Below, in pieces: positions 4,633 through 36,861 of a stretch of 64,000 nt of DNA. Numbering within the stretch: the stretch's first letter is position 1; every line of letters starts with the position of its first letter. The stretch lies in the NCBI GenBank assembly GCA_963731925.1, contig CAVSXK010000026.1, forward strand, positions 21,526 to 85,525, read 5' to 3'. The DNA comes from an uncultured Actinomycetes bacterium (lineage in GTDB: Bacteria > Actinomycetota > UBA4738 > HRBIN12). The notes below the pieces were generated by a model, which saw only the letters and a list, made by a program, of their open reading frames with translations, searched no databases and was not told where the DNA came from. The translations under genes were made by a program, and so were the position numbers.

Positions 4633-4717
4633 GCGCGGGAGTCTAAGCGATGGCCGATCGTCGACCGGATGCATACCGTCGGGCTCGGCGTCCGAAGGCG
4701 GTCGTAGACTCGCCGCC

Positions 4718-8757: not shown

Positions 8758-10019
8758 GCCGTGCGTTCCTGGCGCTGACGCTTGGGGGTCTCCTTCACCG
8801 GGACCAGCGTGGGGTTCACCTTGGACCGAACGACGTCTTCGTCGATCACGCATTTCGTGACGTCCTGACGCGAGGGCAGCTCGTACATCGTGTTGAGCAG
8901 GACCTCCTCCATGATCGCGCGGAGGCCGCGCGCTCCCGTCGCCCGCAGGATCGCCTGGTCGGCGATCGCTCCCAGCGAGTCGTCGGTGAACTCCAGCTCG
9001 ACGCCGTCGAACTCGAAGAACTTGTGGTACTGCCGGACGAGCGCGTTCTTCGGCTTGGTCAGGATGTCGACGAGCGCCGTCTTGTCCAGGTTGTGGACGT
9101 TGGTGATCACCGGCAGGCGGCCGACGAACTCGGGGATCAACCCGTATTTCAGGAGGTCCTCGGGAAGCACCTGACCCAAGATCGCGCCGATGTCCTTGTC
9201 CTCGACCCGGCGGACGTCGGCGCCGAACCCGATCCCCCGAGAGCCGATCCGGCTCTCGACGATCTTCTCCAGGCCGGCGAAGGCACCGCCGCAGATGAAC
9301 AGGACGTTGGTGGTATCGATCTGGATGAACTCCTGGTGCGGATGCTTGCGGCCGCCCTGCGGCGGGACCGACGCCGTCGTCCCTTCCAAGATCTTGAGGA
9401 GCGCCTGCTGCACGCCTTCACCCGACACGTCGCGCGTGATGGAAGGGTTCTCCGACTTGCGCGCGATCTTGTCGACCTCGTCGATGTAGATGATCCCGGT
9501 CTCGGCCTTCTTGACGTCGTAGTCGGCGGCCTGGATCAGCTTGAGCAGGATGTTCTCGACGTCCTCACCGACGTACCCGGCCTCGGTGAGCGCCGTTGCG
9601 TCCGCGATCGCGAACGGGACGTTCAGCATCTTGGCGAGCGTCTGCGCGAGCAGCGTCTTGCCGCAGCCGGTCGGCCCCAAGATCATGATGTTGGACTTCT
9701 GAAGCTCGACGTCCTGGTCCTTCGCGCCGACCTGGATCCGCTTGTAGTGGTTGTAGACCGCGACCGACAGGACCTTCTTCGCCGTCTCCTGGCCGATCAC
9801 GTACTCGTCCAGGAACGCGAAGATCTCCTGTGGCTTGGGGAGTTCCTCGAGCTTCAGCTCGGAGGTCTCGGAGAGCTCCTCCTCGATGATCTCGTTGCAC
9901 AGGTCGATGCACTCGTCGCAGATGTACACGCCGGGTCCGGCGATGAGCTTCTTGACCTGCTTCTGCGACTTGCCGCAGAACGAGCACTTCAGAAGATCCG
10001 AGTCGCCGATCCTCGCCAT
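8754..10019 (-). CDS. clpX: ATP-dependent Clp protease ATP-binding subunit ClpX
   Basis: 421 aa; N-terminal zinc-binding CSFCGK...CDEC; Walker A GPTGCGKT; intact. Confidence 0.96.
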
Positions 10020-10079
10020 GCCCCCTGAGCCCCCTGAGCCGAGCGGCCGGGCGAGTCCCGGCCGTCCGAGGTCGAAATC

Positions 10080-10709
10080 CTACGACGAGCCGGCGGCCGC
10101 CGCTGCGAGTTCGGGCTTGATCTTGCGGCTGGTGATGACCTCGTCCACGACTCCGTACTCGACGGCCTCATCGGCCGTGAGGATGTAGTCGCGGTCCGTG
10201 TCCTTGGCCACCTTCTCGAGCGACTGACCCGTGTGCTCCGCGATCAGCTCCTCGAGGAGCTTGCGGTACCGGGTGATCTCCTTGGCCTGGATCTCGATGT
10301 CGACGGCCTGGCCCTGGGCGCCTCCGTGCGGCTGGTGCAGGAGGATGCGCGAGTGGGGCAGCGCGTACCGCTTGCCCTTGGTCCCGGCGAGCACCAGCAC
10401 CGCTGCGGCCGACGCCGCCTGCCCCATGCAGATCGTCGAGACGTCCGGCTTGATGTACTGCATCGTGTCGTAGATCGCGAACAGCGACGTGATGTCACCG
10501 CCCGGGGAATTCACGTACAGGTTGATGTCCTTGTCGGGATCCTCGGACTCCAGGTGCAGGAGCTGCGCCATGATGAGGTTGCCGACGGCATCGTCGATCG
10601 GCGTCCCGAGGAAGACGATCCGCTCCTTGAGCAGGCGTGAGTAGATGTCGAACGAGCGCTCCCCTCGGCTGGTCTGCTCGACGACGACGGGGACGAGGTA
10701 GTCCTTCAT
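10080..10709 (-). CDS. clpP: ATP-dependent Clp protease proteolytic subunit
   Basis: 209 aa; ClpP signature (...[42 protein letters not shown]...). Confidence 0.95.
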
Positions 10710-12082
10710 GACGTCTCCTCTGCTGTCTGGGCCGTGGCCGCGACCTCGTCGGAGGACCGTTCCGTCTCTCGGGTGGGGTCCTCGGTGCCGGGGTCCGACC
10801 GGATGTCCGCGTGCTCGACGAGGAGGTCGAGCGCCTTAGAGCGGATGATATCACCGGCCAGTGCTACGACTTGGCCGGTGCGGTCGAGGCTCTTGGCCAG
10901 ATCCTTCGGCTCGCGGCCGAGCGCGGCTGCGAGACTACCGATCTCGCGCCCGATCTCTTCGGCCGTCACCTGGATGTCCTCCTGACGGGCGACGGCCTCC
11001 AGGACGAGGTCGGCCTTGATGGCCCGGATCGCGTGGTCGCGAGCGTCCGCTCGGAACCGGAGCTCGTCGAACCCCTGCGTCTCGAGCAACTGGTTCAGGG
11101 TCATGCCCGCCTGCTCGGCGCGCTCCTGCGCGTGCACGACACGGTGCTGCACCTCCTCGTCGACGAGTGAATCCGGGAGCTCGACGTCGACCGAACCGAT
11201 CATCGCCTCGAGCACGCGATCGCGGACGTCGGCGTCGGCGGAGCGCTCCCGGTTCTTCCGCAACTGCTCCCGGAGATCCGCCTTCAGCTCCTCGAGCGTG
11301 TCGAACTCGGACGCCACCCTGGCGAACTCGTCGTCGGCGTCGGGCAGCTTCTTCCCCTTGACCTCCTTGACCAACGCTCGGAACGAGACCTCCTGCCCGG
11401 CACGATCCCCCGCACCGGGTCCGAGCGTGTCGTTGAACGCGATGATCTCGCCGGCGCGCTTGCCGGCGAGCTCGGCGTCCAGCTTGTCGCCGAACTCACC
11501 GCTGCCGACCGCATACAGGTGGTCGGGCCGGGTGGCCTCGGGGATCTCCTCGCCGTGGACGGCCGCGTGCAGGTCGACGACCACGTAATCGCCCTCGCGA
11601 GCCGCGCGCGACACGGTCTCGAGCTCGGCGAACCGATCGCGCAGCGAATCGAGATACCGGTCGACCTCCTGGTCGGTGATCTCGACCTTCGGTCGATCGA
11701 CCCGGATGCCCTTGTACGCCGACGCGTCGAGCGTCAGACGAGGCCGGACCTCGACGACCGCCGTGAAGACCAGCGCCTTGCCCTCCTCCACGTCGCCGAG
11801 CTCGATGTCGGGCTCGGTGATCGGGGCGAGATCGTGTTCGCGCAACGCCTCCCGGTAGTACGTGGGCACCGACTCCTCGATGAACTCGCCCAGCACGGCG
11901 TCGTGTCCGAACTGCGCATCGATCACCTGCTTCGGGACCTTCCCCTTGCGGAAGCCCGGGATCTTGATCTGTTGCGCGATCTTCCGGTACGCCCGGTCGA
12001 GGTCCTTTCCCACCTCGTCGGGCGGGATCTCGACGGTGAGCTTGACCGTGTGCTTGTCGGTCGATTCGAGGGTCGTCTGCAT
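10706..12082 (-). CDS. tig: trigger factor
   Basis: 458 aa from [24 protein letters not shown]..., PPIase/FKBP middle domain, acidic C-terminal tail; upstream part of the 728-aa ORF is not coding. Confidence 0.93.
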
Positions 12083-13459: not shown

Positions 13460-13502
13460 GTCGGGGCGGGCGGATTCGAACCGCCGGCCTCCTGCTCCCA
13501 AA
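13460..13502 (-). repeat. 43-nt direct repeat identical to the 3' half (anticodon loop to discriminator) of tRNA-Pro(TGG); att-like remnant
   Basis: gtcggggcgggcggattcgaaccgccggcctcctgctcccaaa is identical to 22948-22990. The 5' half of a tRNA is absent: no acceptor or D-arm complement upstream. Confidence 0.75.
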
Positions 13503-13590
13503 CCAGAAGCGGCGCAGAGCCGCTACCTGCGGAGACGATCGTTCGCCCTGGTCGGTGCTCGTAACAGGAGTCACACGGGCGCGGTCGAAT

Positions 13591-13676: not shown

Positions 13677-13750
13677 AGGCAGGCGCAATGGCCATGCATC
13701 CTCCACGAGGGTCGTTGCCTCCAGGCTACGGGCAGCCTGGAGGACGTGAA

Positions 13751-13781
13751 GCGACCCCGCCGGCATACGCGGCGGGGTCGC
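13751..13781 (-). terminator. 12-bp GC-rich hairpin downstream of the DUF4397 gene, followed by a second 10-bp hairpin at 13718-13743
   Basis: gcgaccccgccg-gcatacg-cggcggggtcgc; candidate intrinsic terminator without a clear U tract. Confidence 0.35.
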
Positions 13782-13807
13782 TCCCTACGCCTTTCGGTGC
13801 GGCGTCC

Positions 13808-14476
13808 CTACTTGGTGCCGACCTCCAGGGCCACGACCGCGAAGTCGTAGCCAGAGGTCCCGTTGCCCCAGGCGTAGACCTGGTAAGCCGTGCCCTCCTG
13901 CAGATCGAGGACGGCTGGCCCGATCACCGGCGCGTAGTCACCCGGAAGGGAGACCCAGGCCGCGTAGACGCCGGTGGGCACCTTCATCGTGGCGGAGGCG
14001 CCGTTCGGCACGTCCTCGAGCAGCACGGCGCCGTTCGCCCACACGTCGACGGCGGGGGCCGCGGCGGTGTGGCGGACCGTGAGGCGCGCGGTGTCGCTCC
14101 TCAGCGCCTTCACGTTGTTCTTGAACAACCCGAGGGTCGGGCTGCCATCGGCCGTCAGGTATGCGATCGCCGTGTAGTTCTTGTTCCTCGCCAGCTCGAC
14201 GCCGTCGGCCTCGAGGATCGCCTCGTCGTCGCAGGTGTTGCTGGCGGCCACGATCTTGACGTCGTAGGTGCCGGCCGGCAGCGGCACGCCGGTCACGACC
14301 TCGCCGGGGTTGAACTCGGGGATGGCCACGGCCCCGTTCATGCAGACTTCGACGTCCACGCCGGGGATCCCGTGCACGACGTTGAGCGACGCGTCGGCGG
14401 CCGAGGCCGTCCCCACGCCGAGCATCGAGACCGCGAGCGTCGCTGCGACACCGAGTCCCAGGAGTCGCTTCCTCAT
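13808..14476 (-). CDS. secreted DUF4397-like protein
   Basis: 222 aa with signal peptide (MRKRLLGLGVAATLAVSMLGVGTASA), beta-rich and Gly/Val-rich; family assignment from memory. Confidence 0.7.
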   Translation of the reverse strand: MRKRLLGLGVAATLAVSMLGVGTASAADASLNVVHGIPGVDVEVCMNGAVAIPEFNPGEVVTGVPLPAGTYDVKIVAASNTCDDEAILEADGVELARNKNYTAIAYLTADGSPTLGLFKNNVKALRSDTARLTVRHTAAAPAVDVWANGAVLLEDVPNGASATMKVPTGVYAAWVSLPGDYAPVIGPAVLDLQEGTAYQVYAWGNGTSGYDFAVVALEVGTK

Positions 14477-14616
14477 CCTGCTTCCTCCTCTTGCCTCGGG
14501 AGCGGGCCACTCCCGCTCCGTCCTCCCAGGAAGCTACGTGAGGACGCTGCCACAATCCATGCGTAAACCTATGCACTCCGCATTGTTTTCCGTCGGCAAC
14601 GCGGTACCATCTAGGC

Positions 14617-15525
14617 ATGCCTGACCCGAACGGAACCTCGAAGCCGGGCGTGCCCATCGCCACCGTGTCGAAGACGCTCGACATCCCGGTCCCCACCATC
14701 CGCTCCTGGGAGCGACGGTACGGCTTCCCCGCGCCGCCCCGGACGGACGGCCGGCATCGCCGCTACACCCCCCGCGAGATCGAGCAGCTCCGCAACCTCC
14801 GCGATCTCATCACGCGCGGGCACTCGGCCCGCGAGGCCGTCGCGCGCCTGAGCGCCGCACCGTCGCGGGCCGACGGCGGGGATCTCGTCGAACAGCTGAT
14901 CGACGCCGCGATGCGTCTGGACAGCGACGGGGTGCGCGGGGCGCTGGATGGCTCGGCCGAACGGCTCGGGGTCGAGGGCGCGATCCGCGACGTGATGTTC
15001 CGCGCGATGCGGGAGATCGGGACGCGGTGGAAGACCGGAACCTGCGACATCGAGCAGGAGCACCTCGCGAGCGAGGCGGTACGGGCGTGGCTCGCCCGCC
15101 AGAGGGCGATGGCGCCGCCCCCGTTCCGGCCGGATCCGATCGTCCTCGCGTGCGGTCCAAAGGACCTCCACACGATCGGGCTCGAGGCGTTCGCCGTCGT
15201 CCTCGCCCGGCGGGGCTGGCCCCTGCGGATGCTCGGCGCGATGACACCCGCCCCCTCGCTCCTCTCGGCGGTCCGAACCGTCCGCGCGGCGGTGGTGGTG
15301 GTGATCTCCCAGCGCGGTGTCACGCGCCGGGCGGCGATCGAGTCCCTCGCGGGGGTCGACGCCGTGCCGGGCGTCAGGGCGTTCTATGCGGGGGACGCGT
15401 TCGTCGCGGCGTCCGCTCGGCGCGACGTCCCCGGCACGTACCTGGGGGAGGACGTGGTCCAGGCGGCCGAGCTGCTTGAGTCCGCCCTCACGCGGCCCCG
15501 GTCCAGCCGGAGCGCGGCGCGCTAG
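14617..15525 (+). CDS. carH: CarH/LitR-type MerR-family transcriptional regulator with B12-binding domain (light-sensing photoreceptor regulator)
   Basis: MerR HTH (VSKTLDIPVPTIRSWERRYGFP); Wx9EH motif (WKTGTCDIEQEH); canonical B12-binding DxHxxG (DLHTIG). Confidence 0.85.
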   Translation: MPDPNGTSKPGVPIATVSKTLDIPVPTIRSWERRYGFPAPPRTDGRHRRYTPREIEQLRNLRDLITRGHSAREAVARLSAAPSRADGGDLVEQLIDAAMRLDSDGVRGALDGSAERLGVEGAIRDVMFRAMREIGTRWKTGTCDIEQEHLASEAVRAWLARQRAMAPPPFRPDPIVLACGPKDLHTIGLEAFAVVLARRGWPLRMLGAMTPAPSLLSAVRTVRAAVVVVISQRGVTRRAAIESLAGVDAVPGVRAFYAGDAFVAASARRDVPGTYLGEDVVQAAELLESALTRPRSSRSAAR

Positions 15526-16826
15526 GTCGCGACCGGGACGATCGGCTCCGGGTAGCCGGAGCCGCGGAGCAGCGCCGGGTCCTTCCACGGGGTGAAGACC
15601 AGGGGCGCCTGGACGCCGCGGAGCTCCTGGACGTACCGACGAATGTACGCGCCGCTCGGGTCGTACCGCCTGGCCTGCCGGACGGGATTCAGGGTCCGGG
15701 TTCGGCGGGGATCGGTGCCCGTGCCCGCCGCCCACTGCCAATTGCCGGCGTTGTTCGCGGGGTCCGCGTCGATCAGCAGACGTGAGAAGTGGCGTTCGCC
15801 CCGCTGCCACGGCACCCCGAGGCGCCGCGTCAGGAACGAGGCGGCCACGAGCCGCGCCCGGTTGTGCATCCACCCCTCGCGCAGCAGCTGGCGCATCCCG
15901 GCGTCGACGAGCGGGAGCCCGGTCCGACCTTCGCGCCAGGCGGCCAGCGCGCGATCCTCCGGCACCGGAGGCCCGGAGATCCCCACCGGGTCCCGGAGGC
16001 TCCGCCACGCGAGCGCCGGGTCCTCCGCTAGGAGCTGCAGGAAGAAGTCGCGCCACGCCAGCTGCCGGACGAACGGCTCGGCGGCGGCGGCGTTCGCGCG
16101 TATCGCCACCTCGTTAGCCGAAACGCACCCGAACCGCAGATAGGGAGACAGGCGCGACGTGGCCTCGACCGCGAGGTCGTCCCGTCCCTCCGCATAGCCC
16201 CCGAGCTCGCGTCCGAGGAAAGCGTGGAGGCGCCGCCGCCCGACGCGCTCGCCGCCACGGGCGACGTCGACCGCGTCGGGCGTGACCGATACCGGGTCCG
16301 GTCGCGGGCCCGGCTCCAGATCGCCCGGGACGATGACCCGCCGCGGCGCGGGCAGAAGGTCACCCGGCGGTCGCTGCCTCCAGGCGCGGAAGTACGGGGT
16401 GAACACGCGATACGCGTTCGCCCGCGGGAGCCCGCCGGGCTCGAAGACGGCGCTCTCGGGGAAGACCCGCAGGTCGAGCCGCGCCCGCTCGCAGGCCTCG
16501 GCGAGCTGGCGCTCGCGGCGTCGGGCGTAGGCGCTCGCGTCCCCCGTCACGAAGATCGCCGAGCAGCCCGCCTCGATCGCGACCGTCATCGCCTCTTCGA
16601 CCACCGCCCCCCGGCGGACGAACAGCCGGCCGTCGAGTCGTTCGAGCGAGCGATCCAGGTCGACGAGGCTCTCGAGCAGGAACCGGTCGCGGTTCGCCGA
16701 GGTCTCGAGGAGCCCCGGGTCCAGCACGAAGAGCGGGACGATCTCGGAGGCCGTCCGGCACGCCTCGGCGAGCGCGGGGTGATCGTGGACACGCAGGTCA
16801 CGCGTGAACAGGACGAGGATCCGCAT
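15522..16826 (-). CDS. phr: deoxyribodipyrimidine photolyase (CPD photolyase)
   Basis: 434 aa; photolyase/cryptochrome FAD-binding motifs (...WREGRTGLPLVDAGMRQL...GWMHNRARLVAASFL...DADPANNAGNWQWAAGTGTD). Confidence 0.9.
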   Translation of the reverse strand: MRILVLFTRDLRVHDHPALAEACRTASEIVPLFVLDPGLLETSANRDRFLLESLVDLDRSLERLDGRLFVRRGAVVEEAMTVAIEAGCSAIFVTGDASAYARRRERQLAEACERARLDLRVFPESAVFEPGGLPRANAYRVFTPYFRAWRQRPPGDLLPAPRRVIVPGDLEPGPRPDPVSVTPDAVDVARGGERVGRRRLHAFLGRELGGYAEGRDDLAVEATSRLSPYLRFGCVSANEVAIRANAAAAEPFVRQLAWRDFFLQLLAEDPALAWRSLRDPVGISGPPVPEDRALAAWREGRTGLPLVDAGMRQLLREGWMHNRARLVAASFLTRRLGVPWQRGERHFSRLLIDADPANNAGNWQWAAGTGTDPRRTRTLNPVRQARRYDPSGAYIRRYVQELRGVQAPLVFTPWKDPALLRGSGYPEPIVPVAT

Positions 16827-16899
16827 GGGTTCGACTGTAGGGGTCTCATGTCGCCATCGGGTCCCCGAACCCGTGCAACCTGGCCGGGCCGATCCGTGA

Positions 16900-17730
16900 T
16901 CAGTCGGCGGACGCCAACGTCCCCGCGAAGATCTGCCACGCCAGCGCGGACTTGGCCACCAGACTGAGGAGCATGTAGACGCGCTCCCCGAACAGGTAGT
17001 CCTTCCACCGCCCGATCTGCCGGTACTGCAGCCATTGGTTCACGGCGAACGACATGAAGAACACGAACAGTGAGACGAAGATCGCGTAGACGAACCCCGG
17101 TGCCTGCGCGTCCGTGCCGATCCCGGCGAGGTACAGCCCGATCGCGATCCACGGGACGACCCCGATCAGGCTCCCGAGCCAGAACGGCAGCATGCCCCCG
17201 CCGGGGCGCTCGTACCGCTCCTGCAGCAAGCCGAACAGGATCATCGCCGCGTTGGCCCCGAGGATCGCGATCACGGCGGCCACGTCGGTAATGCCGGGGA
17301 GCAGCGCGATCAGCACCGCCATGAGCGACGCGCTCACCGAGTACTCGATCCACCGGAAGTCGTTGCGCCCCACCAACAGCATCCGCCGGTACCGCGGGAA
17401 CCCCAGCGGCGAGGCGATCAGGAAGTGCGCGATCGCCGAGATCAACAGGAAGGCGGCCACCGCCCACGCCACGCGCAGGTCGAACAGCGTGACCGTCTCC
17501 GACGCGGAGCCCGGCGGGCCGGTGAGCGGGTGGATGACGATCGGGATCGTGAACCCGGTCGCGAGGATGAGGATCAGCACGCCCTGCGCCGCGTGCAGGA
17601 GGCCGAGGGCGAGGTTGACGCCCCGCAAGCGGCCGATGCGGCTCGAGACCTCGGCCTCCGAGGCGCCCGGGAACAGCAGCTCGCGAAGATCCTCGCGCGA
17701 AGCGGCGCTCATCGGAACCGCTCCCTGCAT
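16900..17730 (-). CDS. heliorhodopsin
   Basis: 276 aa, 7TM; strong similarity to heliorhodopsin 48C12 as recalled from memory (FRWIEYSVSASLMAVLIAL.., ..LPFWLGSLIGVVPW.., ..ERVYMLLSLVAKSALAWQIFAGTL with the retinal Schiff-base Lys in SLVAKSALAW). Possible alternative start at M7 (17712) with better RBS (GGGAG). Confidence 0.88.
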   Translation of the reverse strand: MQGAVPMSAASREDLRELLFPGASEAEVSSRIGRLRGVNLALGLLHAAQGVLILILATGFTIPIVIHPLTGPPGSASETVTLFDLRVAWAVAAFLLISAIAHFLIASPLGFPRYRRMLLVGRNDFRWIEYSVSASLMAVLIALLPGITDVAAVIAILGANAAMILFGLLQERYERPGGGMLPFWLGSLIGVVPWIAIGLYLAGIGTDAQAPGFVYAIFVSLFVFFMSFAVNQWLQYRQIGRWKDYLFGERVYMLLSLVAKSALAWQIFAGTLASAD

Positions 17731-17779
17731 CGTGGGAGCTCTTGGTCTTCATGGTCCCATCTCCTTCCGTCGCACGGCT

Positions 17780-17796
17780 CCTCGGCGGCGCCGAGG
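17780..17796. other. perfect 17-bp GC palindrome abutting the CFA-synthase stop codon in the CFAS-heliorhodopsin spacer
   Basis: cctcggcg-g-cgccgagg; could be an intercistronic terminator or attenuator hairpin, or a dimeric-regulator operator. Confidence 0.3.
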
Positions 17797-17797
17797 G

Positions 17798-19051
17798 TCA
17801 TGCAGCTTCGAGGACGATCTGGCTCACGTCGGTACGTCCTGCCCGGAACCCTCCCTCGCAGTACGAGAGGTAGTACTGCCACATCCGCTTGAAGCGCTCA
17901 TCGAACCCGAGACCGGCGATGGCGGGCCACGACGCGTCGAAGCGCCGACGCCACTCGGCCAGGGTGAGCGCGTACGACGACCCGTAGCCCTGCATCGCCG
18001 TGATCCGCAACCCAGCGGCCGCAGCGTCGGCCCGCAGCACGCCGGGCGAGGGCACCTGGCCCCCGGGGAAGACGTAGCGGCGGATGAAGTCGGGGTTCGC
18101 GTCCGAGGACGCCCAGTGCCGGTCCGCCACCGTGATGGCCTGCAGGCCGATCCGCCCGCCCGGACCGAGACGGTCCGCGAGCGCGCGGAAGTACTCGACC
18201 CACCGGGTTCGCGGGATCGACTCGATCATCTCGATCGACACGATCGCGTCGTAGGTGCCGGGGGTCCGCGCGAAGTCCTCGAGGCGCACCTCCACGCGAT
18301 CGCCGAGCCCTCGGTCGGCCATCAGCTTCTCCACCCACGTCGCCTGCTCCCCCGACACCGTCACCGTGCTCACGGTGCACCCGAGCTCGCCGGCCGCGAA
18401 GGCGGCGAACCCACCCCATCCGGAGCCCACCTCGAGGACCCGCATCCCCGCTCGCAGGCCGGCGGCCCGCGCGATGCGCAGGTACTTCTCCCGCTGCGCC
18501 TCCTCCAGAGACATGTCCTCGCGCGCGAACACGGCCGACGAATACGTCATCGACCCGTCCAGCCACTCGCGGAAGAATGCGTTGCCGAGGTCGTAATGCT
18601 CCACGGGGGTCCGGAGCGGACCTCGCGGTGTGCTGGCGCGGCCGATCCATCGCCAGGCGGCGCGCCCGGCGCGGTCGAGGACGACGGGGATCCGGGGGCG
18701 ATGGTCCCGCTCCAGGTGCAGCGCCCCGAGCTCGATCACGGACGCCAGGTCGGGTGAGTCGAACTCGCCGGCGATCCAGCCGTCGGCCAGCCCGATCGCG
18801 CCCGTGGAGAGGAGCCGTCGGATCACGCGTTCGTCGCGCAGGTCCACCTCGGCGTCGGGCCCCGGCAGCCTTCCGGTGTACGTGCGCATCGAGCCGTCAG
18901 GGAACCGCACCCGGAGGGTCCCGGTACGGAGCAGCCGGCCGGCGAGCCGGTCCAGGAGCCACCGCTCGGCGCTCACGTCCCCACCCCCACCGGTCCGCGC
19001 TCGATCGTCACGAGGTGGTCCGGGGTCGGGCCGTGGCGGCGGAACGGGGCC
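17798..19051 (-). CDS. cyclopropane-fatty-acyl-phospholipid synthase family SAM-dependent methyltransferase (UfaM/UfaO-like)
   Basis: SAM-binding VLEVGSGWGG and CFA-synthase C-terminus (...QYYLSYCEGGFRAGRTDVSQIVL); start approximated at an internal GTG; overlaps DUF1365 stop. Confidence 0.8.
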   Translation of the reverse strand, partial: GPVPPPRPDPGPPRDDRARTGGGGDVSAERWLLDRLAGRLLRTGTLRVRFPDGSMRTYTGRLPGPDAEVDLRDERVIRRLLSTGAIGLADGWIAGEFDSPDLASVIELGALHLERDHRPRIPVVLDRAGRAAWRWIGRASTPRGPLRTPVEHYDLGNAFFREWLDGSMTYSSAVFAREDMSLEEAQREKYLRIARAAGLRAGMRVLEVGSGWGGFAAFAAGELGCTVSTVTVSGEQATWVEKLMADRGLGDRVEVRLEDFARTPGTYDAIVSIEMIESIPRTRWVEYFRALADRLGPGGRIGLQAITVADRHWASSDANPDFIRRYVFPGGQVPSPGVLRADAAAAGLRITAMQGYGSSYALTLAEWRRRFDASWPAIAGLGFDERFKRMWQYYLSYCEGGFRAGRTDVSQIVLEAA

Positions 19052-19761
19052 CCCTTGCGCCACAGGCGAAGGGCCTCCCAGTGGATCCCGCCGAGCACCT
19101 TGAGCGTGACCATCGGGTGGGTGGCGAACACCCGCCACAGGCCGAACCGCCCGAGCTCGCGACGCATCGCCACCAGCGTCGCCGTCAGCACCTGGCCGGC
19201 GGCGACGTGCTCGCGGACGATCAGGGCCGCTCGGTCGTCGGGCGGGCGCACGCGGAAGTCGTACGTCGCCTCTTGGTCGATGAACGGCGACACGAAGAGC
19301 TCCTTGCCGAACACGTGCCGGGCGTTCCCCGCGGGATCGAGCCCGTCGACCCTCGCGAGGTGATGGTGCCACTGCCCGAAGGTGTTCGACACCTCGTAGA
19401 GCACCGCCCGGAGGTCACCCCCCGGCCCGTATCCGAACCACACCGAGATCGGGTTGAATACGTGCCCGAGGACCCTCGGCAGGGTCAGGATCCGGACGGG
19501 TCCACCCTCGAGGTCGATCCCTGCCTCCCGCAGGTAGCCCTCGAGCCACGGGCGCAGCGGCGACCCGTCGCGCGGCCCGTGGTCGCGATCCCAGAACGCG
19601 AACGGGGCCGCGCGGTTGTGACCGAACCCGGCCGCCGAGCGATCCAGCTCGTCGACCTCGTCCAGGTCCAGCCACAGGTAGTACACGCCGTAGGAGAAGC
19701 GGTGCGTCGCCGGGAAGAAGCGGCGATGCATGACGGTCCCAACGTACAGAGCGCTGTTCAT
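18973..19761 (-). CDS. DUF1365 family protein
   Basis: MNSALYVGTVMHRRFFPATHRFSYGVYYLWLDLDE... typical DUF1365; flanked by amine-oxidase-like and CFAS-like genes as recalled for RSP_1087-1091-type clusters. Confidence 0.8.
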   Translation of the reverse strand: MNSALYVGTVMHRRFFPATHRFSYGVYYLWLDLDEVDELDRSAAGFGHNRAAPFAFWDRDHGPRDGSPLRPWLEGYLREAGIDLEGGPVRILTLPRVLGHVFNPISVWFGYGPGGDLRAVLYEVSNTFGQWHHHLARVDGLDPAGNARHVFGKELFVSPFIDQEATYDFRVRPPDDRAALIVREHVAAGQVLTATLVAMRRELGRFGLWRVFATHPMVTLKVLGGIHWEALRLWRKGAPFRRHGPTPDHLVTIERGPVGVGT

Positions 19762-21060
19762 GCGGCGATCGCACCCACGAGAGCGGGCGGCCTCGGCATG
19801 ACGCCCCATGGTGCCGGCGCACCGAGGGCCGCGGCCACGTCCAGGCCGGAGCGCAGTCCGTCCTCGTGGAAGCCGTGCCCGCACCAGGCGCCGGCGAACC
19901 ACGTGCGACGGCCCCCCTGGATCGCCGGGAGCGAGCGCTGCGCGTCGAGGGCTGCCCGGTCGAACTGCGGGTGCACGTACCCGAACCGCTGCACCTCGCC
20001 TCGGGGGTCGCGGATCGGGTTGAGCGTGACGAAGACTGGCCGCTCGGTCCGCAGGTTCTGCAGCCGGTTCATCCAGTACGTGAGCGACACCGGCTTGGAT
20101 CGATCGGGCTGACCGCGCCCGTCGGCGAGGTAGTTCCAGCTGGACCACACGGCCCGGCGCCGGGGCATCAAGGCGGGATCGCGATGCAGCACGGCCTCGT
20201 TGTCCTGGTAGCGGATGGCCCCGAGGACGTGGCGCTCGCGCAGCGTCGCCTCGGAGCCGAGGATCTGGAGCGTGGTGTCGGGATGGGTGGCGAACACCAC
20301 CTCGTCGAACCGGTCGAGCCCACCTGACGCGTCGAGCACCTCGACGCCGTCCTCGTCCCGGCGGACGGCCACCACCCGCGCCGAGAGACGGATCCGATCC
20401 CGATAGCCGGCGGTCAGCCGCCGCACGTACTCCCGGCTCCCTCCGCTCACGGTTCGCCACCGTGGGCGCGCCCGCACCTGGAGGATGTCATGGCTCGAGA
20501 GGAAGCCGACCAGCGTGGTCACGGGGAACTCGAGCATGTCGTCGAGCCCGGACGACCAGATGGCGGCGCTCACGGGGAGCAGCAGGTCCAGGCGGAACTC
20601 GTCGCCGTAGCCACCGCCGCTCCAGATACGAGCCAAGCGACTCGCGCGTTCCGGACGCCAGGACCCGCGGCGCGTCTCGACAGAACCGCCGGAAGTCCCG
20701 CAGCATCCGCCAGGTCCCCGGTCGGATCGCGTTGGACGGCTGCGCGAGCAGGCCGCGGGCCCGGCTCTGGTACTCGAACGAGCCACCGCCCACCGACACC
20801 GAGAAGGACATGTCGCTCCACTCGGTCGGGACCTCGAGCACATCGAACAGGCGGACGAGGTTCGGGTAGTTCCGTTCGTTGTAGACGATGAACCCGGTGT
20901 CGACCGGGACGAGACCTCCCTCGTCCTCCACGTCGACCGTGTTCGAGTGCCCGCCGATCCGCGCCTCGGACTCGTACAGGACCACCTCGTGACGGTGGTC
21001 CAACGCCCACGCGGCGCCCATCCCGGCGATGCCGCCGCCGATGACCCCGATCCTCGCCAT
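19758..21060 (-). CDS. FAD/NAD(P)-binding amine-oxidase-like oxidoreductase (UfaD-like), interrupted by a single +1 frameshift near 20625
   Basis: N-terminus MARIGVIGGGIAGMGAAWAL (Rossmann GxGxxG) in one frame, remainder (..GGYGDEFRLDLLLPVSAAIWSS.. to ..TWFAGAWCGHGFHEDGL) in another; an extra T in cggcggTggctacggc. Confidence 0.75.
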
Positions 21061-21197
21061 GGCCCGACGGTAGAGTCGGATAGCGCCCGCTGCATCGTTT
21101 CGGCCCCCATGTGCATAGGTTCGGCAGAGGTTGGCAGAGGGCCCCGGGACGTACCGTCCGGGGTATGGATCGGATCACTCCTCGACGGCGGAGGCCC

Positions 21198-22211
21198 TCA
21201 CGCGCTGGTGGCTCGGCTCGGGCCGACCTCGCTCGCCGACGTGCTCAGCCGCTCGCACGCGCGCCACAGCCGGCGCGCATCTCGGTCGTCCACGCGGGTG
21301 CCGAGGAGTCGGTCGACCGGGCGGGCTCCACGGTCCAGCCAGAACCTGCCGGTCGTGCGCGCGGGTTCCTCCGACGCAACGAGCCAGACGATCGTGTCCG
21401 CGCCCTCCTCGGGCGTTCGGAGCCTGGGCCCGATCAGCCGGTGGAACGTCGGGAGCGAGGCGACGACGCCCGGGGTGTCGGCCCATCCGGGGTGCATCGC
21501 GTTGACCGTGATGGCCCGGCCCCGCAGTCTTCGGGACCACTCGCGGGTGAGGGTGACCAGCGCCCGCTTCGCCCTCGCGTAGGCGATGCTCCCCCGGTAC
21601 GACTCGCGCTCCATCTGCAGGTCGTCCAGGTGGAGCCCCTGCAGGTACATGCCCCCGGAGGCGACGTTGACGACGCGCGCGACGCCGGCGTTCCCGGCGG
21701 TGCGCTCGAGGAGCGGCACGAGGCCGTTCGTGAGGACGAAGGGCCCGAGCACCATCGTGGTGAACGTCATCTCGTAGCCGTCGACGGAGACCCGGCGCTC
21801 GGGCAGGAGCGCGCCCGCGTTGTTGACGAGCGCGTCGAGCCGTTCCTCGGACTCGGCCATCTGATCGGCGACCCGCCGGACGGCGGCGGGGTCGCTGAGG
21901 TCGAGCGTGTACGTCGCGACCTCGGCGCCGGGAGCGACCTGCAGGACCGACTCGCGCGCCCGCGCGGCCTTGCCCTCGTCGCGGACCAGGAGTCGCAGCC
22001 CGGCACCCATCTTCGCCAGGCGCGTCGCCGCGGCCAGGCCGAGGCCCGAGCTCGCTCCCGTGATCGCCACGACGCGACCCGTCAGGTCGAGGCGGTCGAG
22101 GTCTTCCCAGTCGAACAAGGACGAACGGATCATCGGACCGAGGTCCGTGAAGCTCAGGACCACGGACGCCTCGATCACCTCGTCGGCCAGCCGCCTGAGA
22201 TCGACCATCAC
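21198..22211 (-). CDS. short-chain dehydrogenase/reductase (SDR) family oxidoreductase
   Basis: TGASSGLG cofactor motif, NNAG, catalytic Y-x3-K (YARAK); first gene of the minus-strand lipid-modification operon. Confidence 0.8.
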   Translation of the reverse strand: MMVDLRRLADEVIEASVVLSFTDLGPMIRSSLFDWEDLDRLDLTGRVVAITGASSGLGLAAATRLAKMGAGLRLLVRDEGKAARARESVLQVAPGAEVATYTLDLSDPAAVRRVADQMAESEERLDALVNNAGALLPERRVSVDGYEMTFTTMVLGPFVLTNGLVPLLERTAGNAGVARVVNVASGGMYLQGLHLDDLQMERESYRGSIAYARAKRALVTLTREWSRRLRGRAITVNAMHPGWADTPGVVASLPTFHRLIGPRLRTPEEGADTIVWLVASEEPARTTGRFWLDRGARPVDRLLGTRVDDRDARRLWRACERLSTSASEVGPSRATSA

Positions 22212-22306
22212 AGCTCCCTGAAAGTCCCCTCCCCTCTCTTGACGCTAGCAGCGACGGGTGCCCATCCGATCCCACGAACCGATGCACAGGACAAGGAGGC
22301 CGGAAG

Positions 22307-22744
22307 ATGACCGTACTGAACGAGGAGCTGAAGGTGAGCCGACCACTCGACGAGGTCTTCGGACTGGTCGGCGACTTCGCGAACGCCGAGGTCTGGGATC
22401 CCGGCGTGGAGGAGTCCCGAGCCATCACCGAGGGACCGGTGCGCGTCGGGAGCCGGTACGAGCTGACCGTCGTGTTCAACGGCCGCCGCCTGCCGATGAC
22501 CTACGAGGTCACGGCGTTCGACCCTCCGCGCCGCGTCGAGCTGGTCGGGACGGGTTCGACAGTGGACGCGCGGGACGACATCCGATTCGAGGCGACCGAT
22601 GAAGGGACGAGGATCCTCTACATGGCCGATCTTCGGCTCAAAGGGGTGCTCCGCTTGATAGAGCCGCTCCTGCGATCGAAGTTCGAGCAGGTCGGCCGCC
22701 GGGCGATGGAGGGGATGCGCGCGGCGTTCGAGGCCAAGCCCTGA
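22307..22744 (+). CDS. SRPBCC (START/Bet v1/polyketide-cyclase-like) domain protein
   Basis: 145 aa; good RBS AAGGAGG; divergently transcribed from the SDR gene. Confidence 0.8.
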   Translation: MTVLNEELKVSRPLDEVFGLVGDFANAEVWDPGVEESRAITEGPVRVGSRYELTVVFNGRRLPMTYEVTAFDPPRRVELVGTGSTVDARDDIRFEATDEGTRILYMADLRLKGVLRLIEPLLRSKFEQVGRRAMEGMRAAFEAKP

Positions 22745-22753
22745 GGCAAGACT

Positions 22754-22921
22754 TCACAGAAGAGTGCGGACGCGCGGTCGGCAACCGAGGCCTCGAGGTG
22801 CCAGGAGGAACCGCTTGCGATCGAGCCCACCGGCGTACCCCGTCAGCGAGCCTTCGCTGCCGATCACCCGGTGGCAGGCCACGACGATGCCGATCGGGTC
22901 TGGGACGACGGTCTGGTGGAC
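22754..22921 (-). pseudogene. ogt: remnant of the C-terminal about 55 aa of O6-alkylguanine-DNA alkyltransferase (ogt/MGMT), N-terminal two-thirds missing
   Basis: ..[33 protein letters not shown] matches the MGMT active-site region (PCHRV...GYAGG..K..LL). Only about 50 nt separate it from the tRNA-Pro 3' end, too few for the missing N-terminal domain. Confidence 0.55.
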
Positions 22922-22947: not shown

Positions 22948-22990
22948 CCGGGGTTTTGTCGGGGCGGGCGGATTCGAACCGCCGGCCTCC
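22948..22990 (-). repeat. second copy of the 43-nt direct repeat (inside the tRNA-Pro gene)
   Basis: Identical to 13460-13502. Confidence 0.75.
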
Positions 22991-23022
22991 TGCTCCCAAA
23001 GCAGGCGCGCTGCCAGGCTGCG
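22949..23022 (-). tRNA. tRNA-Pro (anticodon TGG)
   Basis: Cloverleaf folded by eye: acceptor CGGGGCG/CGCCCCG, anticodon stem CCTGC/GCAGG, loop TTTGGGA, T-arm GGCGG-TTCGAAT-CCGCC; CCA not encoded. Confidence 0.85.
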
Positions 23023-23173
23023 CTACGCCCCGTCCGATGGATGCTAACGCGCCAGCCGGACGGGAGCGTCCAGGATCGAGAGCGAGAGCGTGACCCGCTC
23101 CGCTCGGGCGGGCCCGCGCACGCGCCTCGATCCGGTTCGGTCCAATGGTCACGGGTGATACAAAGGGGACCCG

Positions 23174-23845
23174 ATGCGCACCCTCCCTCGACCCCCCGTC
23201 GCCCTGCAGGATGCCGCGGTCGACCTGCGCAGCGTGACGCGACTGTTCGGCGCGGCACCTGCGCTCGTCCGCGTCGACCTGTCGATCGAGCGAGGAGAGG
23301 CGGTCGTCCTGCGGGGACCGAACGGCGCGGGCAAGAGCACGCTGCTTCGGATCGTCGCGACGGCGCTCTCGCCGACCTACGGTGGCGGATCGGTGCTCGG
23401 ATTCGACCTCGCAACCGAGCGCGAGGAGATCCGTCGGCGTTCGGAGCTCCTCACGCACCGAACGCGCCTGTACGAAGAGCTCTCCGCGCGTGAGAACCTC
23501 GAGCTGTTCGCTGATCTCCTCGGCATCAGCCGCGTCCGCGTAGGGGAGGCGCTCGAACGCGTCGCGCTCGACGACGTGGCGGACGAACGCGTGAGGACGT
23601 TCTCCGCGGGGATGCGCCAGAAGGTCGCGGTCGCCCGCGCGATCGTCCGCGATCCCGAGCTCCTCCTTCTCGACGAACCCACCACCGGTCTGGACGCCGC
23701 TGCCCGTCAGGCGGTGGACGACATGATGCTGCGTGCCTCGCGCGAGGGACGAACACTCGTGATCGCGACACATCACGAGGTCGCGCCCGGCCTCGCCGCC
23801 CGCGTCGTCACGATGCGCGATGGTTCCGTGGAGACCGGCTCGTGA
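23174..23845 (+). CDS. ccmA: heme exporter ATP-binding protein CcmA
   Basis: ABC ATPase motifs [28 protein letters not shown]; first gene of the ccmABCD run. Confidence 0.88.
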
Positions 23846-24513
23846 CCTTCGCGCGCCAGGCGAGCGTGATCGCGCGCAAGGACCTCCTGATCGAGGTGCG
23901 CGGACGACACGCGGTCGGGACGCTGCTCCCGTTCGCGGCGACCGTCCTCGTGGCGTTCGGGTTCGCGTTCGGCCCGGGGCGGGACATCCTCGAACGGGTC
24001 GCGCCCGGTCTCCTCTGGATGGCGTTGTTGTTCTCGGCCGTCATGGCGTCCCGCCGCACGTACCAGACGGAGGCGGAGGACGGCGCCCTCGAAGGGCTGC
24101 TGCTCGCGCCGATCGACAAGGCCGCGGTCTACCTCGGGAAGACCTTCGCCGTGACGGTCGAGCTGCTCGCGCTCGTGATCGCCGTGCTCCTGCTCGTCGT
24201 GGTGCTGTTCGACCTCTCGGTCGCGAGCCCTCTCCTGCTGGTCGCCGCGTTCGTGCTCGGGGTCGTCGGACTCGCGGCGGTGGGGAGCCTCTTCGGGGTC
24301 GTCGCCGAGTCGGCGCGAACGCGCGAAGCGATCTTCCCGATGCTGGTCCTGCCGCTCGTCGCGCCGGTGCTGATCGCCGGTGTCCGCGCCACCGATCTCG
24401 CGGCGGCGGGGCGTTCGGGCGAGGTGCTCGCGTGGCTCGGTCTGCTCGCCGCGTTCGACATCGTGTTCCTGTCGGTCGGCGTCCTGGTGTTCGGCTACCT
24501 GTTGGAGGACTGA
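23842..24513 (+). CDS. ccmB: heme exporter membrane protein CcmB
   Basis: 223 aa, 6 TM, overlaps ccmA stop; CcmB-like. Confidence 0.85.
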
Positions 24514-25242
24514 TTGGCGGCGACCGCGGAACGCGCACTCGGCCGGGCGACGTCTCGCGGTGGCGAGCGGACGCTCGGCATCTCGGCGATCCTCGCCCTC
24601 GGGGTGTCGGCCGTGCTCTCGCTCGTCGTGGCACCCCCCGACGCGGTGCAGGGTGAGGTCCAGCGGATCATGTACGTCCACGTCCCCGCCGCCTGGCTCG
24701 CCTACCTGTCGTTCTTCGTCGTCTTCGTCGCGAGCATCGCCTACCTGCGCACGAAGAAGACGCGTTGGGACCGGGTCGCCGCCGCATCGGCCGAGATCGG
24801 CGTGCTGTTCACGGCCCTCGCGATCGTCCTGGGGATGCTGTGGGGCAAGCCCGTCTGGGGCACGTGGTGGACGTGGGACCCGAGGCTCACGACGACCGCC
24901 GTCTTGCTCTTGATCTACGTCTCCTATCTCGCGATCCGGCGCATCACGGACAACCCGTCGCGGCGAGCACGCTGGGCGGCCGTGGTGGGCATCGTCGGGT
25001 TCGTCGACGTGCCGATCGTGCACCTGTCGGTCGTGTGGTGGCGCTCGCTGCACCAGGGATCGACGGTGTTCCGGCTGGGAGGACCCGAGATCGAGGGGAC
25101 GATGCTGCTCGCGCTGCTCGTCGGCGTCGCCGCGTTCACCGTCACGTACGCGTACCTGATGACGCTCCGCCTGCGCGTCGGGCGGCTCGAAGAGCGGGCG
25201 GCGCGCGAGGCCCTGTCACCCCTCGTCGGGGCCGAGCGCTGA
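24514..25242 (+). CDS. ccmC: heme exporter protein CcmC
   Basis: 242 aa; W-rich heme-handling motif WGTWWTWDPRLT; TTG start. Confidence 0.85.
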   Translation: MAATAERALGRATSRGGERTLGISAILALGVSAVLSLVVAPPDAVQGEVQRIMYVHVPAAWLAYLSFFVVFVASIAYLRTKKTRWDRVAAASAEIGVLFTALAIVLGMLWGKPVWGTWWTWDPRLTTTAVLLLIYVSYLAIRRITDNPSRRARWAAVVGIVGFVDVPIVHLSVVWWRSLHQGSTVFRLGGPEIEGTMLLALLVGVAAFTVTYAYLMTLRLRVGRLEERAAREALSPLVGAER

Positions 25243-25388
25243 TGGCCCCCAACGTCGGGTACGTGATCGCTGGATACCTCGTCACCGCGATCGCGCTCGG
25301 CGGGTACACGCTGCGGCTGTTCGCCCGGGCACGCGACGCGAAACGGCGCGCCCAGACGATCGCCGAACGCCGCCATGGAGGGGTTTGA
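25243..25388 (+). CDS. ccmD: heme exporter protein CcmD (small single-TM protein)
   Basis: 48 aa MAPNVGYVIAGYLVTAIALGGYTLRLFARARDAKRRAQ...; ATG overlaps ccmC TGA (ATGA). Confidence 0.6.
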
Positions 25389-25448
25389 AGGTTCGAGCGG
25401 CGAGAACGTCGGTTGGGCTGGATGGTTCTCTGGGCCTCGGTCGGATGC

Positions 25449-26369
25449 TCAGGCGTCCGCGAGCGCCTCGCGCGCCTGCGCGATCATGTCCTTCGCCTTC
25501 CCGCGTTCGACGCCGAACGGGGCCGCGTCCAAGTAGGTCTCGAACGCCGTGATGGCCTCGTCCGGGCGGTCGAGCCCTCGAAGGAGGATGACGCCCCGGA
25601 TGAACAGCGCCTCGGGGTAGCGCGGGTCGGTCGAGAGCGACCGCTCGACGGACCGCAACGCTTCCTCCGGGCGCCCGGACCGGAACAGGATGATCCCGAC
25701 GTGCGCGAGTGCCTCCGCGTCGTCCGGATCGAGGTCAAGAGCGACGGCGTACTGGGAGAGCGACTCCGCGATCATCCCGGCGTCCAGGTACCGGTGAGCG
25801 AGATCCAACCGCGCGGCCAGATCGTTCGGCTGCTCTTGCACGCGTTGCTCGAAGAACGCGAGCGGGTCGTCCGCGGCCTGGGGCGAGGAGGCCGCCTGCG
25901 TCTGCGGCTCGGCGTCGCGAGCCAGCGACGCCACCACGACGGCCAGGACGGTCCCACCGATCAGCACCGCGACCGCCCACGCGGGCACGCGACGGGGTTC
26001 GGCGGTGGCGGCTCGGACTCCCCGGCCCTCGGCCTCCCCCTCGAGCTCCTCGCCTGAGGCCCGCGCCGTCGACGCTTCGATCCCGGCCGACGCCGCAGCG
26101 TCACGACGGTCGAGCGCGCGCAGGACCCGCACCATGCGACCCTCGGTCTGCTCGCGGAATCGGAGGTAGCCGGCCTCGTCGAGCGCACCCGACGCGCGCG
26201 CATCCTCGAGGTCGGCGAGCGATCGCAGGAGCGCCTCGCGCCGGTCCTCGAGGGGGTCGGCGAGCGGTTCGACCGGCGCGGGGGCCTCGCGCAGGAACCC
26301 GGCGACCACGCCCGCGCCCGCGAGGACCGCGAGACCCGCGACCGCGAACGCCACCGCGATCGGGTTCAC
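25449..26369 (-). CDS. ccmI: CcmI/CycH-like TPR protein of cytochrome c maturation
   Basis: N-terminal TM (VNPIAVAFAVAGLAVLAGA) then TPR repeats; last gene of the minus-strand ccmEFGH(I) run; GTG start. Confidence 0.6.
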   Translation of the reverse strand: MNPIAVAFAVAGLAVLAGAGVVAGFLREAPAPVEPLADPLEDRREALLRSLADLEDARASGALDEAGYLRFREQTEGRMVRVLRALDRRDAAASAGIEASTARASGEELEGEAEGRGVRAATAEPRRVPAWAVAVLIGGTVLAVVVASLARDAEPQTQAASSPQAADDPLAFFEQRVQEQPNDLAARLDLAHRYLDAGMIAESLSQYAVALDLDPDDAEALAHVGIILFRSGRPEEALRSVERSLSTDPRYPEALFIRGVILLRGLDRPDEAITAFETYLDAAPFGVERGKAKDMIAQAREALADA

Positions 26370-29866: not shown

Positions 29867-29932
29867 GGACAGAGCCTACGAGGGTGCCTCCGTTCTCGTC
29901 GAGGTACCGCGCCGAGCGATGCGAAGCACGGC

Positions 29933-36792: not shown

Positions 36793-36861
36793 CGCGCCAT
36801 CCTACGCCGCCGTTCGCGGCCGGGACCGCCGTCGTTTGCGCACGGGACCTCGGGCTGCGAC

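Follow-up and report, generated by a model that had tools for sequence, protein, structure and literature searches.

The physiological role of heliorhodopsins (HeRs) is still debated. Members of the family have an inverted membrane topology, bind retinal and run through a slow photocycle that does not pump ions. Homologues number thousands, and to our knowledge only a few partners have so far been put to the test (glutamine synthetase, a class II photolyase and an ABC transporter). In this work we analyzed the HeR gene in a window of 64,000 nt (~70% G+C) from contig CAVSXK010000026.1 of an uncultured Actinomycetes bacterium; the window is the whole stretch of DNA under study, and all coordinates refer to it unless a relative is named. 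The HeR gene lies there among lipid-modification genes, a photolyase gene (phr) and carH, which encodes a CarH/LitR-type B12 photoreceptor repressor. Surveys of HeR neighborhoods have listed photolyase, cobalamin-binding proteins, MerR regulators and short-chain dehydrogenases/reductases (SDRs) and proposed roles in oxidative stress and lipid remodeling (10.1101/2021.02.16.431466; PMC11109279; PMC8612252), the Chazan preprint linking the neighborhoods to lipid remodeling, photolyase and cobalamin-binding proteins (10.1101/2021.02.16.431466). A shared operator is not reported in these surveys, whereas the window carries a predicted one. Text term searches found no mention of DUF1365 or cyclopropane (cyclopropane fatty acid [CFA] synthase) in PMC11109279 and PMC8612252, and none of cyclopropane in the Chazan preprint, where DUF1365 was not among the terms searched. 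Our literature search found no paper joining heliorhodopsin with CarH, or heliorhodopsin with fasciclin.

The closest described analogue of the locus is found in Pseudomonas putida and P. mendocina, where a LitR/CarH-family regulator is encoded beside phrB, an SDR, a flavin (FAD) oxidoreductase and ufaM (PMC9758184; Sumi et al. 2020 cited therein). These genes were shown experimentally to be induced 25-33-fold by light in a LitR-dependent manner (PMC9758184). The Pseudomonas regulators belong to class II, do not bind B12 and act with light-oxygen-voltage (LOV) proteins. The class I CarH/LitR proteins of Thermus, Myxococcus, Bacillus megaterium and Streptomyces are autoregulated MerR-B12 repressors of photoprotective genes, and their operators are tandem 11-bp repeats, nnnnTnnACAn (searched as N4-T-N2-RCR), that overlap promoter elements (PMC9304148). 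For the lipid genes, the described systems are the furan fatty acid loci of Rhodopseudomonas palustris (RPA2571-2569) and Rhodobacter sphaeroides (RSP1091-1087); in the latter, synthesis of the furan fatty acid is carried out by UfaD and UfaO (DUF1365) and needs neither the CFA-like nor the SDR gene (PMC7380195).

On balance, we think it probable that the region is a ~9.5-kb photoprotection cassette under a CarH/LitR class-I-type B12 photoreceptor repressor, in which HeR serves as a light-induced membrane accessory. As in the Pseudomonas clusters, a MerR-type regulator gene stands beside photolyase, SDR, FAD-oxidoreductase and UfaM-type genes. The window regulator, however, has the full class-I B12 signature, and HeR is terminal in a predicted lipid operon, whereas no rhodopsin is described in the Pseudomonas gene lists. 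By analogy, the cassette can be regarded as the class-I (B12) actinobacterial counterpart of the Pseudomonas LitR system, with HeR as a new member. It is like the class I regulons in its MerR-B12 repressor and in its operator-like 11-bp tandem repeats overlapping the predicted -35 element, and autoregulation is predicted here. Classical CarH regulons have carotenoid targets; in contrast, the cassette contains no crt genes, its repeat core is TnnGCA, and the predicted targets are the lipid-modification genes, photolyase and HeR. Families PF01593, PF07103 and PF02353 follow each other in the order of RPA2571-2569, a match at the family level, with the first gene frameshifted in the window and with an SDR gene in addition, as in the furan fatty acid loci. 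The Ufa-like cluster named in an earlier sequence-only reading of this DNA matches ufaD-ufaO-ufaM of R. palustris in gene order (PMC7380195). The Rhodobacter operon is controlled by sigmaE/ChrR in response to singlet oxygen, whereas control by a B12 photoreceptor is predicted for the window.

Between 15.5 and 22.2 kb, the genes on the minus strand are, in the order of transcription, those for an SDR, an FAD amine oxidase (AmOx), DUF1365, a CFA-synthase-like protein (CFAS), HeR and phr; carH and phr are convergent and overlap by 4 nt at their 3' ends (stop codons). Gene set, order and strands are as the sequence-only reading had them, and its gaps of 67 nt (CFAS-HeR) and 73 nt (HeR-phr) are right for an HeR start at ATG 17730. 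The HeR call is secure: the protein matches Pfam PF18761 over its full length (E=1.5e-93, 313 bits, cutoff 26.7), scores 303 bits against the NCBIfam HeR equivalog NF038020 (cutoff 100) and aligns to the 48C12 structure 6SU3 at E=5e-71. In that alignment the retinal lysine K260 corresponds to K241 of 48C12, the counterion glutamate E129 to E107, and His46 and His102 to H23 and H80. Residues K260, E129, H46 and H102 are invariant in a 33-sequence alignment, and by sequence the gene is a bona fide heliorhodopsin.

The reading frames needed correction at two points. One extra C at about 17734 puts the conserved HeR start, ATG 17752, out of frame; this ATG lies eight nt after a Shine-Dalgarno (SD) sequence and is kept as start codon in close relatives. 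Removal of the extra C gives a 283-aa HeR, MKTKSSTMQGAVPMSAAS..., with the same layout as P0001, so that ATG 17752 is probably the true start and the CFAS-HeR gap becomes 45 nt. The AmOx gene is broken over two frames by a single extra G near 20617. A comparison over 6.6 kb with contig L081 (97.3% identical) showed no other uncompensated coding indel. Elsewhere in the window, a valS-like tRNA ligase gene is split over at least four frames (2091-5346, minus strand) and an aldehyde dehydrogenase gene over 2 frames (34009-36801, minus strand). Because these two genes are frameshifted too, the window indels are most likely assembly errors and not pseudogenization or decay of the cluster. A genuine AmOx pseudogene was rejected as the default, given the likewise broken valS and aldehyde dehydrogenase genes and the intact gene in three independent 97%-identical contigs. 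In such an indel-prone assembly, gene lengths and gap sizes in the window call for care.

The predicted CarH protein contains PF13411, PF02607 and PF02310 (Pfam), that is, a MerR helix-turn-helix (HTH), a four-helix bundle and a Rossmann B12-binding domain, and aligns over nearly its full length to TtCarH (5C8D, E=1.5e-29); its score against the NCBIfam CarH equivalog is 122 bits, below the cutoff of 400. W138, E148, H149 and H185 (Wx9EH plus the lower axial His) align to TtCarH. These four positions are invariant in the 24 HeR-linked regulators aligned, in which the DNA-binding domain is MerR or HTH_17 (two may be without an HTH).

An 11-bp element, AACCTATGCAC, is common to several intergenic regions of the cassette. 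Its relaxed form AACCNNTGCA occurs 5 times in the 64-kb window against 0.26 expected, a number reached in 0/100 shuffles. All five copies fall within 14.5-22.3 kb and four of them in promoter gaps; the repeat-bearing gaps are those upstream of carH (14566), upstream of AmOx, between the divergent SDR and SRPBCC genes, and between HeR and phr (in reverse orientation). The repeats match N4-T-N2-RCR with a GCA core, overlap the -35 element and have a tandem spacing of 11 bp at AmOx and 12 bp at carH. At carH, the inverted repeat overlaps the -35 hexamer TTGTTT, and the -10 hexamer TACCAT (14605-14610) is found 6 nt before the ATG; this layout is the same in relatives L001, L086, L088 and L093. 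The AmOx promoter, with -10 TACCGT (21067-21072) 6 nt before the ATG, recurs unchanged in L001 and L081, and that of phr is conserved among the window, L001, L081, L084 and L086. The SDR/SRPBCC repeat lies 27 nt upstream of TAGCGT (22242-22247), a geometry that matches the phr promoter. A TAnnnT hexamer precedes the start codon by 6-7 nt at carH, AmOx and phr, the leaderless layout that is common in Actinobacteria, and HeR instead has a strong SD sequence. Judged by these repeats, CarH probably controls the whole cassette and is more than a mere neighbor. Table 1 lists the features.

Table 1. Features of the HeR cassette and its borders in window coordinates; promoters and operators are predicted
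Feature	Position	Strand	Evidence or remark
att-like repeat at DUF4397 end	13460..13502	.	perfect 43-nt copy of tRNA-Pro 3' part; 59 nt at 90% with 43-nt perfect core
DUF4397 secreted protein	13808..14476	-	Pfam PF14344; divergent from carH; adjoins carH in relatives L084, L086, L093
carH promoter/operator	14554..14610	+	AATCCATGCGT 14554-14564; AACCTATGCAC 14566-14576; inverted CCGCATTGTTT 14578-14588
CarH/LitR class-I-type B12 photoreceptor repressor	14617..15525	+	MerR HTH + B12-binding (Pfam); Wx9EH; lower-ligand His
phr, class-I-type cyclobutane pyrimidine dimer (CPD) photolyase	15522..16826	-	PF00875 + PF03441
phr promoter	16834..16878	-	reverse-oriented repeat TTGCACGGGTTC 16867-16878; -10 TACAGT 16834-16839; 7 nt to ATG
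Heliorhodopsin	16900..17752	-	in-frame open reading frame (ORF) 16900-17730; PF18761; conserved start ATG 17752
CFAS-HeR spacer	17753..17797	-	SD GGAAGGAG at 17761-17768
CFA-synthase-like S-adenosylmethionine (SAM) methyltransferase, UfaM/RSP1089 position	17798..18976	-	PF02353; orthologues 78-98% in L081, L084, L086, L093
DUF1365 (UfaO family)	18973..19761	-	PF07103
FAD amine-oxidase/phytoene-desaturase-like, UfaD-like (AmOx)	19758..21060	-	PF01593; +1 frameshift near 20617; intact (433 aa) in L081
AmOx operon promoter/operator	21067..21132	-	tandem AACCTCTGCCG 21122-21132 + AACCTATGCAC 21111-21121; AAACGATGCAG 21090-21100 at -35
SDR oxidoreductase with own promoter-like element	21198..22211	-	Pfam, NCBIfam
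Divergent SDR/SRPBCC control region	22242..22287	.	repeat 22275-22287: AACCGATGCAC towards SRPBCC, GTGCATCGGTTCG towards SDR
SRPBCC/Polyketide_cyc2 protein	22307..22744	+	also beside AmOx cluster in Chloroflexia locus L044
tRNA-Pro(tgg)	22958..23032	-	3' 43 nt (22958-23000) = second repeat copy

From this layout we infer the transcription units carH (with divergent DUF4397), SDR and SRPBCC, AmOx-DUF1365-CFAS-HeR, and phr. HeR is most likely the terminal gene in a CarH-controlled AmOx-DUF1365-CFAS-HeR operon, because the CFAS-HeR gap contains neither a CarH-type repeat nor a -10-like element while phr, SDR, AmOx and carH have repeats. The operon is also supported by the overlap of the DUF1365 ATG with the AmOx stop and of the CFAS GTG start with the DUF1365 stop, and by the lack of a convincing terminator in the CFAS-HeR gap; in the P0005 contig the CFAS and HeR genes even share 4 nt. 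The GC hairpin after the CFAS stop (17780-17796) and the hairpin after the SDR stop were not more stable than shuffled sequences and were not used as terminators. The phr gene would be co-regulated and transcribed from its own conserved leaderless-type promoter. The single operon of six genes in the sequence-only reading is thus not borne out, since a separate promoter-like element precedes each of SDR, AmOx-DUF1365-CFAS-HeR and phr. By gene content and shared motif, the locus does appear to be a coordinated light/photo-oxidation response unit, in keeping with the coordinated response to light and reactive oxygen species (ROS) damage suggested there.

A generic sigma-70 promoter scan of 13.5-23.5 kb gave no promoters, which is uninformative for a 70% GC genome, and a generic terminator scan of the same interval gave chance-level candidates only. 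The Rfam scan of 12.5-23.5 kb detected tRNA-Pro alone and no riboswitch, cobalamin riboswitch included. Control by an extracytoplasmic function (ECF) sigma factor and ChrR, in the style of Rhodobacter or Vibrio, was considered and rejected: the cassette and its surroundings lack a sigma/anti-sigma gene, and the repeats are not spaced like a -35/-10 pair. The CFAS-like protein scored below cutoff in every NCBIfam CFA-synthase model. Outside the cassette, a MetE-like (Meth_synt_2) gene (51533-52668) has a one-mismatch repeat copy, AACCTATGGAC, across its start codon (52661-52671, minus strand); the gene may be a further regulon member, or the match may be due to chance.

We propose that in the dark CarH with bound adenosylcobalamin would sit on the 11-bp TnnGCA-type repeats and repress four promoters, those of carH (probably together with the divergent DUF4397), SDR/SRPBCC, AmOx-DUF1365-CFAS-HeR and phr. 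Light would photolyse the cofactor and release CarH, whereupon the lipid-modifying enzymes and the photolyase would be made, with HeR translated from the same mRNA as the lipid enzymes. The lipid enzymes would probably place methyl-branched or furan-type acyl chains, which scavenge singlet oxygen, on membrane phospholipids; the products of the Ufa pathway are 11-methyl-octadecenoate, its diene and 9M5-FuFA on phospholipids. For HeR, a non-pumping and slow-cycling membrane protein, the most likely role would be that of a light-dependent accessory in the membrane, tuning a co-induced partner. We regard the lipid enzymes as the better partner candidates and the photolyase as the second, because the linkage of DUF1365/CFAS to HeR is older and wider than that of phr, because CFAS and HeR genes overlap in one relative, and because a lipid-remodeling hypothesis exists independently in the literature.

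The same arrangement is found in independent contigs at 88-98% HeR identity (L001, L081-L083 and, at 91%, the P0005 contig) and so is not due to chance. In relatives at 80-83% HeR identity (L084/L085, L086 and L093), a CFAS orthologue (78-81% identical) is followed by two reverse motif copies and then by a (hypothetical)-Fasciclin-epimerase/DUF1731-HeR operon. The 3' end of DUF1365 precedes the CFAS orthologue in L093. DUF4397, carH and phr are a few kb away in these loci, and L084 and L086 keep both the convergent 4-nt carH/phr overlap and the phr promoter element. Among the longer contigs of the 80-98% clade, all those with enough upstream sequence have the DUF1365 cluster next to the HeR operon, the DUF1365-CFAS orthologues being located directly upstream of it. 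At 75% identity, L088 has carH divergent from Fasciclin-HeR-NmrA-like with the motif in between, and L087 and L091 have a lone HeR with a reverse motif 40-75 nt upstream. The HeR transcription units of L084/L085, L086, L087, L088, L091 and L093 thus all have the motif upstream, and the constants across the clade are this motif and the presence of carH. From this comparison, the direct CFAS-HeR-phr chain looks like a recent compaction in which Fasciclin, the epimerase and their promoter were lost and a rearrangement was added, and the HeR-phr adjacency appears recent.

For a wider sample, one genome per species was scanned, and all ORFs of the top 80 HeR loci, together 1.24 Mb, were subjected to profile searches. 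A CarH-like B12-binding HTH regulator is encoded within 3 kb of HeR in 18/80 loci, Fasciclin upstream of HeR within about 0.5 kb in 12/80, and an NmrA/epimerase-like protein within 3 kb in 10/80. The SDR<>AmOx-DUF1365-CFAS cluster lies within 10 kb in four loci (L001, L018 of Dormibacterota, and L044 and L050 of Chloroflexia), and a photolyase gene within 10 kb in two. The leading conserved HeR neighbor across phyla is therefore the CarH-like B12 regulator, then Fasciclin and NmrA-like proteins, with photolyase and the CFAS cluster rarer. In L018 and L044 the B12-HTH regulator gene is located between HeR and the lipid cluster. The four DUF1365 clusters compare with about 0.25-0.6 expected (P ~1e-4 to 4e-3 in a rough Poisson estimate that ignores kinship among genomes), and by the same rough estimate 18/80 CarH-like regulators is far above chance. 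Enrichment of this neighborhood among HeR loci, which had been suggested earlier as a check, was thus observed for the DUF1365 cluster.

In Chloroflexota, Fasciclin, HeR and an HTH_17 + B12-binding regulator follow each other on one strand in L025, L030, L034, L044, L048, L050, L052, L062 and L079 (around locus position 9200-11600, in Chloroflexia and other Chloroflexota; no Fasciclin match in L030). This regulator keeps the CarH Wx9EH + His signature on a non-MerR DNA-binding domain. Inspection of L044 (Chloroflexia) by eye for the shared operator detected only a different palindrome upstream of Fasciclin-HeR.

It is unlikely, though it deserves consideration, that the adjacency is incidental and that light genes were packed together by deletion, rearrangement and cassette movement, HeR working independently, for example with the lost Fasciclin/NmrA-like partners. 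HeR does stand in a Fasciclin-epimerase-HeR operon with its own operator-like motif in relatives, and the cassette is bracketed by att-like repeats and has a different context in L001. The HeR neighbors of other relatives are unrelated, as in the contexts of P0048, P0062, P0049 and P0077 (in two of these four, HeR is at the contig edge). However, predicted co-regulation through the same motif is kept in every arrangement, the linkage of HeR to DUF1365/CFAS recurs in three phyla, and the 4-nt CFAS/HeR overlap in one relative indicates selection for co-expression.

We consider it rather improbable that HeR and phr form a TfHeR-like pair, in which HeR would bind the neighboring photolyase and boost or spectrally broaden CPD repair, with the lipid genes as bystanders. 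The precedent mentioned in the sequence-only reading is real: TfHeR of Trichococcus flocculiformis binds and stimulates TfPHR, the class II photolyase encoded beside it, as measured by isothermal titration calorimetry (ITC) and repair assays (PMC9769723). A photolyase group among HeR neighborhoods has also been described (PMC11109279). As in Trichococcus, the HeR gene of the window lies beside a CPD photolyase gene on the same strand, and an accessory, non-pumping role is proposed in both cases; L060 has HeR beside phr too. In TfHeR, binding is ascribed to basic residues of the cytoplasmic loop (R162 and K227). The 73-nt gap, however, holds a conserved phr-specific promoter-like element, although read-through from HeR into phr may also occur. 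The element is kept in L084 and L086, in which HeR stands on the other strand at a distance of 3-4 kb. The Trichococcus operon has DUF2238 and HIT neighbors and neither CarH nor lipid genes, whereas the window has both. The best PDB matches of the window photolyase are the class I enzymes 1DNP, 1IQR, 4U63 and 1TEZ, and against the class II model TIGR00591 the protein scores only 59 bits, over a stretch of 63 residues, so the partner would be of class-I type in contrast to class II TfPHR. Photolyase genes are within 10 kb in only 2/80 HeR loci, and the conserved partner of phr in the clade is the convergent carH and not HeR.

A role of HeR as the primary photosensor that signals to the cluster like a sensory rhodopsin is highly improbable: bacterial HeRs have long photocycles without pumping, and a sensory role has been proposed from their neighborhoods (PMC8612252), but a complete B12 photoreceptor-repressor with operator-like repeats would already explain light control, the cassette has no histidine kinase, transducer or response regulator, and HeR is itself downstream in an operon bearing operator-like repeats. 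The CarH-type repeats at carH, AmOx, SDR/SRPBCC and phr argue against HeR as an upstream sensor and for an accessory/effector role; of the "signalling or accessory" function suggested previously, the accessory part is retained.

Several points weigh against a CarH-controlled cassette with HeR as its membrane accessory. The repeat core is TnnGCA where the canonical core is TnnACA, and the repeat is forward at carH and AmOx but at phr and SDR it is reverse and lies ~27 nt ahead of the -10; a regulator other than CarH could bind it. No motif was found upstream of HeR in relatives L090, L002 and L003. At 75-83% identity HeR stands in the Fasciclin-epimerase-HeR operon, and the CFAS-HeR fusion would be a recent deletion that need not mean a specific partnership of HeR with the lipid enzymes. 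RSP1089-type CFA-like genes are dispensable for furan fatty acids in R. sphaeroides (PMC7380195), and the lipid product of the window cluster is therefore uncertain. The organisms are uncultured and represented by metagenome-assembled genomes (MAGs). Gene identities, motif positions with their conservation and the neighborhood counts are established here, and CarH binding, light induction, co-transcription, the lipid product and any contact of HeR with a partner are predicted from sequence; in an error-prone assembly with indels the fine spacing could be 1-2 nt off.

The CarH-controlled cassette with HeR as accessory might be extended, as a speculation that we hold doubtful, to a module of two photoreceptors, HeR and a CarH-type protein, across Actinomycetota, Chloroflexota and Dormibacterota. 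In such a module the B12 sensor would switch on transcription, and the co-induced HeR, gated by green light, would in the membrane regulate the furan-fatty-acid-type modification of phospholipids or present lipids for it; the module would be carried here on an integrase-less cassette targeting tRNA-Pro. If true, HeR would have a definite biochemical function in protecting membranes from photo-oxidation. The locus and its relatives set HeR in a regulon with a predicted operator and a B12 photoreceptor, and suggest that HeR expression is itself light-induced through a different photoreceptor, which would recast HeR as an effector and not a sensor. They provide a concrete partner list (UfaD-, UfaO- and UfaM-like enzymes, the class-I-type photolyase, and Fasciclin and NmrA-like proteins in relatives) and sequence-level support for the earlier, purely statistical tie of HeRs to light-dependent remodeling of membrane lipids. 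The locus also points to a link between HeR and B12 photoreceptors across phyla, and it makes the question of HeR function more testable.

The two copies of the 43-nt direct repeat are 9498 nt apart and bracket the ~9.5-kb cassette. L001 shares a block with the window (13689-22899) that covers almost exactly the interval between the repeats, and the flanks of this block differ. The att-like repeats resemble traces of site-specific integration and, with this shared block and its differing flanks, suggest that the light cassette was mobilized as one piece. A single repeat copy and 447 nt connect the DUF4397-side and SRPBCC-side ends in L081, as would be expected from a circular or tandem form. 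The extra 447-nt segment has no Pfam match, the cassette of L001 showed no direct repeat at its flanks, and there is no integrase/recombinase gene between the repeats of the window, where every gene was assigned otherwise. A C-terminal remnant of ogt (O6-alkylguanine-DNA alkyltransferase; last 45 or so codons, ~22760-22900, minus strand) is found at the cassette edge; ogt is intact in L001 (3771-4988), also at the block edge. A terminator-like hairpin with a T-rich tail at 13508-13524 (minus strand) is located downstream of DUF4397, just inside the att-like repeat.

The genes that adjoin the cassette at 23174-29875 encode system I cytochrome c maturation proteins (CcmA-like ABC ATPase, CcmC-like, CcmF and CcmE); Actinobacteria more often use System II. 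A large zinc-ribbon/guanylate-cyclase/AAA_16/TPR protein is encoded at 4559-8305 on the plus strand, 9 kb from HeR, and proteins of this type are also encoded near HeR in L093 (3763-6963) and L089 (3700-7194).

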